Below are positions 1,051 to 5,899 of a stretch of DNA of 11,386 nucleotides, piece by piece. Numbering within the stretch: the stretch's first letter is position 1; each line of letters opens with the position of its first letter. The notes below the pieces were generated by a model. That model made no database searches. It was not told the origin of the DNA and saw only the letters and a program-made list of their open reading frames with translations. The stretch is from the UHGV virus genome UHGV-1619847, one strand, 5' to 3'. Source of the stretch: a virus. The translations under genes and the position numbers were made by a program.

Positions 1051-1284
1051 TCAATCTGGTCTGATCTGTTTTCTGAGCAATTCAGTAATGTCACTCTTTT
1101 CTTTGTTTGCTTCAGGAGAAACTCTTTTTTCTGAGCACAGTCTCCGGCGGCAGGCTTCAATGACCCAGGCTGAGAAATTCCCGGACCCTTTTTGCTCAAG
1201 AGCGATGTTAATTTGTTCAATCATTTGGTTAGGAAAGCGGATGTTGCGGGTTGTTGTTCTGCGGGTTCTGTTCTTCGTTGACAT
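1051..1284 (-). CDS. Ribbon-helix-helix (Arc/Mnt/CopG-like) DNA-binding protein, 77 aa
   Basis: Basic N-terminal tail (KNRTRRTTTR) followed by NIRFPNQMIEQINIALEQKGSGNFSAWVIEACRRRL, which lines up by eye with the P22 Arc core (FNLRWPREVLDLVRKVAEENGRSVNSEIYQRVMESF): beta-strand R-F/W-P, helix, G-x-S/N turn, helix. GGGA lies about 8 nt upstream of the ATG (rc of 1282-1284). Same strand as and 56 nt upstream of the 584-994 ORF. Confidence 0.55.
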   Translation of the reverse strand: MSTKNRTRRTTTRNIRFPNQMIEQINIALEQKGSGNFSAWVIEACRRRLCSEKRVSPEANKEKSDITELLRKQIRPD

Positions 1285-1432
1285 GAGGTTGTCCCGTATT
1301 CAGTGTCGCTGATTTGTATTGTCTGAAGTTGTTTTTACATTAAGTTGATGCAGATCAATTAATATGATACCTGCGTCATAATTGATTATTTGACGTGGTT
1401 TGATGGCGTAGATGCACGTTGTGACATGCAGA

Positions 1433-1447
1433 TGATAATTATTATCA
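1433..1447. promoter_or_regulatory. cosQ: cosQ-region palindrome TGATAAT-T-ATTATCA
   Basis: Perfect 7-1-7 palindrome about 37 bp upstream of the cohesive-end sequence. Lambda has the equivalent TGATAAT-C-ATTATCA in its right-end cosQ region (from memory). Exact cosQ boundaries are not determinable here. Confidence 0.4.
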
Positions 1448-1483
1448 TTTTGCGGGTCCTTTCCGGCGATCCGACAGGTTACG

Positions 1484-1495
1484 GGGCGGCGACCT
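1484..1495. other. cosN: cosN cohesive-end sequence (12-nt 5' overhang GGGCGGCGACCT); mature left genome end begins at 1484
   Basis: Exact lambda cohesive-end 12-mer GGGCGGCGACCT, preceded by the lambda right-end sequence ...CCGACAGGTTACG and followed by CTCGCGGGTTTTCGCTATTTATGAAAATTTTCCGG as in lambda's left end. Confidence 0.85.
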
Positions 1496-1672: not shown

Positions 1673-2192
1673 ATGGAAGTCAACAAAAAGCAGCTGGCTG
1701 ACATTTTCGGTGCGAGTATCCGTACCATTCAGAACTGGCAGGAACAGGGAATGCCCGTTCTGCGAGGCGGTGGCAAGGGTAATGAGGTGCTTTATGACTC
1801 TGCCGCCGTTATAAAATGGTATGCCGAAAGGGATGCTGAAATTGAGAACGAAAAGCTGCGCCGGGAAGTTGAAGAACTGCGGCAGGCCAGCGAGACAGAT
1901 CTCCAGCCAGGGACTATTGAGTACGAACGCCATCGACTTACGCGTGCGCAGGCCGACGCACAGGAACTGAAGAATGCCAGAGACTCAGCTGAAGTGGTGG
2001 AAACCGCATTCTGTACTTTCGTGCTGTCGCGGATCGCAGGTGAAATTGCCAGTATTCTCGACGGGATCCCCCTGTCGGTGCAGCGGCGTTTTCCGGAACT
2101 GGAAAACCGACATGTTGATTTCCTGAAACGGGATATCATCAAAGCCATGAACAAAGCAGCCGCGCTGGATGAACTGATACCGGGGTTGCTGA

Positions 2193-2218
<26 letters not shown>
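1673..2218 (+). CDS. nu1: Terminase small subunit gpNu1
   Basis: 181-aa product MEVNKKQLADIFGASIRTIQNWQEQGMPVLRGG... matches lambda gpNu1 (N-terminal winged HTH). Directly downstream of cosB; overlaps A by 26 nt as in lambda. Confidence 0.95.

Positions 2219-5899
<3,681 letters not shown>

Follow-up and report, generated by a model that had tools for sequence, protein, structure and literature searches.

Arc and Mnt of phage P22, which control the ant/immI switch, are ribbon-helix-helix (RHH) proteins with a short basic N-terminal arm and an N-x-R-aromatic-P strand motif. In the Arc-operator complex, the strand residues Gln9, Asn11, and Arg13 contact bases, and in Mnt a C-terminal extension forms a conserved tetramerization domain. 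Among RHH proteins of the CopG, ParD, PutA, and NikR types, many carry conserved partner domains and serve as antitoxins or as regulators linked to enzymes. YnfO of the Qin prophage and YlcI of the DLP12 prophage, both in Escherichia coli K-12, belong to a family that is listed as uncharacterized, including among the uncharacterized genes of K-12 (PMC11551758). We found no functional study on ynfO, ylcI, or DUF3950 (DUF, domain of unknown function) in the literature. Here we describe a member of this family encoded by a 77-codon open reading frame (ORF; positions 1051–1284, minus strand) in the UHGV virus genome UHGV-1619847, a stretch of 11,386 nucleotides that is hereafter called the window. 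Although an original prediction made from the DNA letters had presented the product as an Arc/Mnt-like RHH protein with a possibly partner-binding tail, we found that the gene is an ordinary, already catalogued YlcI/YnfO (DUF3950) member. Its product is probably an RHH DNA-binding regulator, the likeliest target being its own promoter and operon.

The ORF encodes MSTKNRTRRTTTRNIRFPNQMIEQINIALEQKGSGNFSAWVIEACRRRLCSEKRVSPEANKEKSDITELLRKQIRPD, and every peptide string quoted in the original prediction is present in this translation. The protein matched Pfam PF13132 (DUF3950) over residues 21–50 with 75.7 bits (gathering cut-off 25; E = 2.5e-21), the N-terminal NCBIfam model NF041551 (YlcI_YnfO_N) over residues 10–47 with 36.7 bits (cut-off 30), and phrog_949 with an E-value of 5e-34. 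At a 99.8% identical locus, RefSeq names the product "YlcI/YnfO family protein" and its neighbors "DUF1398 domain-containing protein" and "nohD DNA-packaging protein". Like K-12 ynfO and ylcI, the gene thus occupies a lambdoid-prophage site beside a nohD/Nu1 gene. The window protein is 95–96% identical to database YnfO, and K-12 YnfO has the same length of 77 amino acids and lies in the same neighborhood, with a DUF1398 gene on one side and a nohD/Nu1-type gene on the other. Nothing material differs between the two, and the window gene is another allele; the family membership supplies a name and no function. A 1.2-kb stretch around the gene was matched in 4643 of 5426 complete E. coli genomes. 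We then compared codons 1–50 with those of the diverged copy in BP-4795, a Shiga toxin (Stx) phage. Eleven synonymous and seven non-synonymous codons differed, and the NG86 estimates of non-synonymous (dN) and synonymous (dS) divergence were 0.085 and 0.715, respectively (dN/dS, approximately 0.12). The ORF is therefore a real gene under purifying selection. That it is a chance ORF, or a small protein that does not bind DNA, is highly improbable in view of this ratio and the Pfam E-value, the motif kept in homologs of 32–57% identity, and the strong ribosome-binding site of the BP-4795 copy (GAGGAAAG), even if the Shine-Dalgarno sequence of the window ORF is weak (GGGA, approximately 10 nt upstream), no minus-strand promoter consensus was found upstream of it, and the literature yielded no proteomic or ribosome-profiling support.

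The family is narrow, because just 192 relatives were returned when 1.84 billion representative proteins were scanned in full with HMMER. Distant members, with 32–57% identity, keep the pattern [TS]-x-[KR]-x-I-R-F-P-x-x-L-I-E-x-I ... N-F-S-A-W-V-x-[ED]-A-C-x-x-[KR]-L, the NFS(A)W part of which corresponds to N36, F37, S38, A39, and W40 of the window protein. Across 26 distant members, F37 was invariant and S38 was present in 23. In the N-terminal arm (MSTKNRTRRTTTR) of the same 26 proteins, position 9 was Lys or Arg in 21, position 10 was Thr or Ser in 24, and position 13 was Lys or Arg in all. The Arg/Thr-rich tail that had been likened to the DNA-contacting arms of Arc-family repressors is thus a conserved feature in its basic and Thr/Ser character, and its contact with DNA is predicted.

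Several comparisons bear on the fold. An AlphaFold monomer model, built on a 34-sequence alignment, contained helices at residues 19–32 and 37–54 (predicted local distance difference test score (pLDDT), 79–88), which form a two-helix core with RHH geometry. In this model residues 14–18 were coil and residues 8–13 helix, and the N-terminal strand was not formed; because the strand of an RHH protein pairs between subunits, a strandless monomer model does not settle the fold. The column statistics of the family fit an RHH strand, with positions 13, 15, and 17 nearly invariant, R16 invariant, and positions 12 and 14 variable, and the conserved N36-F37-S38 marks the beginning of helix B. RHH proteins dominated the Foldseek results from both PDB and BFVD, although every hit had an E-value above 1. 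The best superpositions were of the CopG/ParD/PutA/NikR type but scored below significance (StnY 9KKD, PutA52 2RBF, CopA_SO 6IYA, and ParD2 7B22; 1.2–2.6 Å over 39–45 residues with at most 28% identity), and the DUF3950 family lacks the conserved partner domains of many such proteins. In profile searches, the best PDB match of the family was the CopG-family protein StnY, in register and at a sub-threshold E-value of 0.39, while RHH_6 was touched by one of 34 family members (E = 0.092) and a direct sequence search of PDB chains gave a chance match to uL16 only (E = 0.52). Alignment of the family profile with Arc and Mnt sequences by hhalign gave a pairwise E-value of 0.024 and a probability of 2% over 22 columns, in the register proposed by eye in the original prediction (T12-Q9, N14-N11, R16-R13, P18-P15, and G33-G30). 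The window protein shares with Arc and Mnt the predicted topology, the register, the strand motif, and the short basic arm; its N14 and R16 are identical to Arc N11 and R13, and S38 aligns with Arc S35. The proposed Arc/Mnt likeness is partly supported: the proposed register recurred in the hhalign result and the predicted fold is of the RHH kind, and neither hhalign nor the Pfam Arc model returned a significant sequence similarity. Taken together, the structural evidence is consistent although each piece is weak alone, and the predicted fold resembles RHH, with CopG/ParD/PutA-type domains at least as similar to it as Arc or Mnt.

Evidence of a different kind came from relatives outside E. coli prophages, which were found in Pectobacterium, Serratia, Klebsiella, Enterobacter, Xenorhabdus, Brenneria, Pantoea, Erwinia, and Gilliamella. 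In most of these non-E. coli loci, the gene (called H; 51–67 amino acids) is the sole plus-strand gene of an island and is opposed by genes for a P4-type integrase, AlpA, an AntA-like protein, small ORFs, and a Zn-ribbon/Toprim/D5 primase-helicase. These islands are the core of satellites of the P4 or phage-inducible chromosomal island (PICI) type, and a survey of 2026 names a "YlcI/YnfO family protein" in its list of cf-PICI genes and assigns it no function (PMC13612085). The satellite proteins of Enterobacterales have a homologous arm and RHH core (32–47% identity) and no long tail, and their gene, like the lambdoid copy, stands alone on its strand, antisense to the main transcription. It differs from the lambdoid copy in its place, with the AlpA/AntA genes on one side and the primase operon on the other, and in its upstream boxes. 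Two to four copies of a 12–14-bp GTG-N6-CAC box lie upstream of H, in most loci at about -98, -75, and -29 relative to the ATG. The last copy overlaps a TATAGT -10 element, and the middle copy abuts a conserved GTCAAG, that is, TTGAC on the other strand, which looks like the -35 element of the divergent operon. The box cores agree within a locus and differ between loci, and the enrichment of extra copies in the 130 bp upstream of H, relative to the remainder of the loci, exceeded 200-fold. In a sample of 16–17 mutually related loci, and for a pattern that had been noticed by eye before the test, divergence of the box core correlated with that of residues 12 and 14 (r = 0.71, or partial r = 0.69 when both helices were controlled for; permutation p = 2e-4). 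When 22 variable positions were scanned without prior selection, positions 12 and 14, which align with Arc Gln9 and Asn11, came first and second for this co-variation. The relation was established in the satellite branch and is indirect evidence. It is the strongest argument that DUF3950 proteins may read DNA with an RHH-type strand and that satellite H would bind its own promoter region.

Two further observations concern these satellite loci. The boxes of L124–L151 and L003 lie at approximately -200 to 0 from the DUF3950 gene (e.g., L131, 5800–6000), between that gene and the divergent primase operon, and this interval looks like an undescribed switch or immunity region. L124–L151 also share a conserved GC-rich hairpin (e.g., GCCCGGCAGTGCGCCAACACTAACCGGGC) on the strand opposite to the DUF3950 gene, at approximately -190 to -115 from it; a Shine-Dalgarno sequence and then the start of the divergent operon come next. 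The hairpin, which gave rise to a spurious conserved "peptide" (..CANTNRASDHNV..) in antisense ORFs, had no Rfam match in the nine satellite loci scanned and may be a leader or regulatory RNA.

Based on the comparisons above, the following mode of action can be proposed for YnfO. The conserved part of this small protein, residues 1 to approximately 50, would consist of the basic arm and an RHH domain, and, as is usual for RHH proteins, the NIRF strands of two subunits would join in a two-stranded sheet. The sheet would enter the major groove, where the outward-facing T12, N14, and R16 would read bases, and the grip on the phosphate backbone would come from the basic arm together with the N-terminus of helix B (N36-F37-S38). 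Such a protein would most likely be a sequence-specific transcriptional regulator, and its likeliest target would be its own promoter and hence an accessory operon of ynfO and the DUF1398 gene, the transcription of which runs counter to that of the late operon at the lambdoid right end. We thus infer dimerization, DNA binding by the window protein, autoregulation, and the identity of the target, and consider an RHH regulator of its own promoter and operon to be the probable answer. A search against RHH families, a check proposed in the original prediction, gave no match of the ORF protein to the Pfam families RHH, Arc, CopG, MetJ, ParD, and RelB at E ≤ 1, and the lambdoid copy yielded no identifiable operator.

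The search for that operator centered on the leader between the ORF and cos, the proximal part of which (approximately 105 bp) is kept in all lambda-type copies. Upstream of the ORF, a promoter scan of the minus strand detected no match to the sigma-70 consensus, and inspection by hand gave weak candidates only. Except for a palindrome close to cos, no repeated or palindromic operator-like words in 1270–1450 rose above shuffled controls, and the GTG-N6-CAC boxes of the satellites were absent. Because there is no promoter consensus and no repeated box, and because the flank of the Stx-type copy is non-homologous, an autoregulatory operator cannot be named and a target in trans is possible. The conserved head might then act as a trans regulator in cross-talk between phage and satellite or between phage and host, its target lying not in its own locus but, for example, in the switch region of a satellite or in promoters of the host. 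An operator in cis that both types share is not evident, because the DNA shared by the lambda-type and Stx-type copies is limited to codons 1–47 and their flanks are non-homologous. Furthermore, the nearest non-lambdoid relatives come from P4/PICI-like satellites, where they are putative switch proteins. The analysis turned up no candidate target, however, and short operators may sit in both flanks and have been missed; we regard action in trans as possible but rather unlikely, and autoregulation by an RHH protein remains our preferred reading.

The exceptional palindrome, for which zero chance matches were expected in 200 shuffles, lies 6 bp from a cosQ-like heptamer, the homolog of which is annotated as cosQ in phage 21. 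It is kept in all lambda-type loci and partly in phages 21 and N15, both of which lack the gene, and it was thus ruled out as a ynfO-specific operator. Control of ynfO-ydfO by Fur was also considered, the palindrome being identical to the 7-1-7 Fur-box consensus, and was set aside with no supporting literature found. The palindrome overlaps the -10 element of the best promoter-like match of the region, GTGACA-16-TATCAT, which is on the plus strand and faces cos and Nu1.

Three features are constant among lambdoid copies, namely a near-invariant DNA-reading head, an antisense position within the late unit, and a place directly before the packaging genes in two unrelated systems. The last of these raises the question of whether YnfO is an accessory factor of packaging, which would bind DNA near cos or interact with the small terminase and modulate cos cleavage, termination of packaging, or terminase expression, for example by silencing terminase or cos in the lysogen. 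In every lambdoid case the gene adjoins the packaging module, which is Nu1/A across cos in lambda-type phages and an HNH endonuclease-TerS-TerL block in Stx phages. The plus-strand promoter-like match facing cos and Nu1 would also suit such a role, as would two family members (P0208 and P0250; L003, 4714–5103) in which the DUF3950 head is fused to the N-terminal DNA-binding segment of a Terminase_2 small terminase (E = 1.6e-11). One of these fusions sits in an integrase-primase satellite-like island. On the other hand, the satellite-branch gene lies in a regulatory region beside the primase operon and away from packaging genes, and the palindrome is kept in phages 21 and N15 without the gene. 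The essential packaging genes of lambda and the subsites of cos are all known and located elsewhere, and the gene is therefore dispensable for packaging in the laboratory. A packaging function is accordingly an unlikely explanation in our judgment, and we continue with the gene as a regulator of its own operon. As for the Stx phages themselves (BP-4795; L152, 3594–4228; and L153), the start codons of the DUF3950 gene and the divergent HNH-TerS-TerL block are 41 bp apart, and the promoter of the former must therefore sit inside the HNH coding region.

Conservation of the protein is modular and, as judged from the aligned copies, confined to codons 1 to approximately 50. Homology of the window to Stx-phage DNA covered query positions 237–377 only, which are codons 1–47, and homology to lambda ended at approximately codon 50–55. 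In lambda, an unnamed 64-amino acid ORF between the ybcW-like lambdap79 and cos, which is not annotated in classic lambda records, has its first 49 residues identical to those of the window protein and the same upstream DNA and distance to cos, while its tail is shorter and different (TSEKRAYTSIKSDEE). In addition, approximately 560 bp with the ybcW-like gene separate this ORF from the DUF1398 gene in lambda. The tails of the lambda, Stx, and window types are unrelated to one another (they read CSEKRVSPEANKEKSDITELLRKQIRPD, TSEKRAYTSIKSDEE in lambda, and AADIKYARQLTIKKNDTQYALRWLFI); tail length and sequence vary among near-identical N-termini, and the distant members of 51–67 amino acids stop shortly after helix B. 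The string quoted as a 30-residue C-terminal extension in fact has 27 residues (51–77), and since helix B in the model runs to residue 54, the real extension is approximately 23 residues. The tail has a pLDDT of approximately 57. It was suggested in the original prediction to be a partner-binding segment, as in antitoxins; being unrelated or absent in the copies compared and of low pLDDT, the tail (approximately 25 residues) is best read as a mosaic recombination junction, unlike the conserved tetramerization domain of Mnt.

The same data bear on the idea that the gene encodes a type II antitoxin, in which the RHH domain would autoregulate the operon and the tail would neutralize a toxin encoded by the downstream DUF1398 gene. 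A conserved partner gene, a conserved toxin-binding tail, and a known toxin family are expected of such a system, and we found none of them. Besides the lack of conservation in the tail, no DUF1398 gene lies beside the gene in the Stx phages BP-4795 and Stx2a_F349, in L158, or in any of 27 distant loci, and in lambda and DLP12 an oppositely oriented ybcW stands between the two. The DUF1398 protein matched only DUF1398 in Pfam, no toxin model, and no PADLOC defense model, and overexpression of YdfO is reported to increase resistance to oxidative stress (PMC4077768), a protective effect and not a toxic one. The antitoxin role is very unlikely, and a toxin-antitoxin reading is not supported and should be dropped.

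The window as a whole is the late region of a lambda-type phage or prophage (Table 1). Terminase A is followed on the plus strand by W, portal B, C, D, and E, and then by head and tail genes. At the other end, bases 1–85 match the end of a lysis-cassette gene in a near-identical E. coli prophage, and two minus-strand genes, the ORF and the DUF1398 gene, lie between this point and the block of cos and Nu1. Because of the position of cos, the ATG of ynfO is 200 bp from the physical right end of virion DNA, and the gene reads inward, opposing late transcription. This setting between DUF1398 and the cos-terminase region is unlike that of Arc and Mnt at the immI switch. The DUF1398 protein matched PDB 2HH8 (YdfO; E = 1.4e-69), which was deposited as "Hypothetical protein ydfO" with no function assigned; its PHROGs label "head protein" (phrog_413) looks like an annotation artifact of adjacency to head genes. 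In K-12 annotations ynfO-ydfO is an operon (PMC12218254); ylcI and ybcW have been seen as a transcribed convergent pair (PMC12288877), and ydfO is described as stress-inducible in the literature. No ORF with family support was found in positions 86–583, the approximately 500 bp that separate the lysis gene from the DUF1398 gene; this interval is a variable insertion hotspot, because related prophages carry KilA-N, hypothetical, or IS3 genes there (L002). An Rfam scan of positions 1–2300 and the nine satellite loci detected no known RNA except one tRNA.

Table 1. Features in and around the ynfO/ylcI-family gene of UHGV-1619847
Feature	Position	Strand	Basis or remark
DUF1398 gene (YdfO/YbcV-like), downstream of ynfO and co-directional	584–1009 (RefSeq start 994)	-	Pfam DUF1398, E = 3.3e-43
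ynfO/ylcI-family coding sequence (DUF3950), 77 amino acids, ATG start	1051–1284	-	ORF list; Pfam, NCBIfam, and PHROG matches
Variable C-terminal tail, residues 51–77 and stop; mosaic junction (best reading)	1051–1134	-	Homology to lambda and BP-4795 copies ends at codons 47–55
Predicted RHH core, residues 14–50: strand NIRF, helix A 19–32, turn GSGN, helix B from 37	1135–1245	-	
Basic N-terminal arm, residues 1–13	1246–1284	-	Lys/Arg and Thr/Ser character kept in distant members; DNA contact predicted
ynfO 5' leader, presumed promoter region	1285–1432	-	Alignment of lambda-type copies
Perfect 15-bp palindrome TGATAATtATTATCA	1433–1447		Comparison with shuffled sequences
cos: cosQ-like GGGTCCT (1454–1460) and 12-nt lambda cohesive-end sequence GGGCGGCGACCT (1484–1495)	1454–1495	+	
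Nu1 terminase small subunit, divergent from ynfO across cos	1673–2218	+	Pfam Phage_Nu1, E = 3.9e-101
Terminase A	2193–4118	+	

Some entries in the databases call for caution with regard to the distribution of the family. A scan of viral contigs for relatives of the ORF returned near-identical copies only. "Homologs" were also recorded in unrelated taxa such as Staphylococcus, Bacillus, Streptomyces, Flavobacterium, and Arcanobacterium (a 3566-bp "plasmid"), many of them on contigs of approximately 3.5 kb (e.g., L092, L094, L099, L103, L107, L109, L117, and L141) and approximately 96% identical to the lambda type over residues 1–55, and many related database proteins carry frameshifts. The copies on the 3.5-kb contigs look like contamination by a lambda-derived 3.6-kb sequencing control amplicon and not like a true distribution. 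Orphan copies of 51–59 amino acids were found among housekeeping genes in Rouxiella (L123, 6001–6180) and Tatumella (L134 and L142–L144), for example directly after cytochrome bd-type oxidase genes, and neither prophage nor satellite genes were present within 6 kb; the context of these chromosomal copies gave no hint of a function.

YnfO/YlcI genes are present in most E. coli genomes and in phage lambda, yet the family is uncharacterized. New here are the argued fold with its read-out residues, the modular conservation of codons 1 to approximately 50, and the operator-like architecture in satellites. With a predicted fold, a candidate DNA-reading surface (T12, N14, and R16), and a mode of action that can be tested, a domain of unknown function becomes the subject of a concrete hypothesis. 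A broader scenario, which we offer as speculation and think improbable as it stands, is that DUF3950 proteins are unrecognized RHH switch or immunity repressors. Those of satellites would read their own GTG-N6-CAC boxes with residues 12 and 14 and control the divergent primase operon together with their own promoter; lambdoid phages would have acquired the head and would carry it at the DNA end that enters the cell first, where it would act in trans on resident satellites, cos/terminase expression, or host promoters, and not by simple autoregulation. As regards the window itself, the outcome is mainly one of clarification. The satellite lead deserves its own follow-up, because boxes that co-vary with two residues are a natural specificity series and could show what turns these islands on and off.
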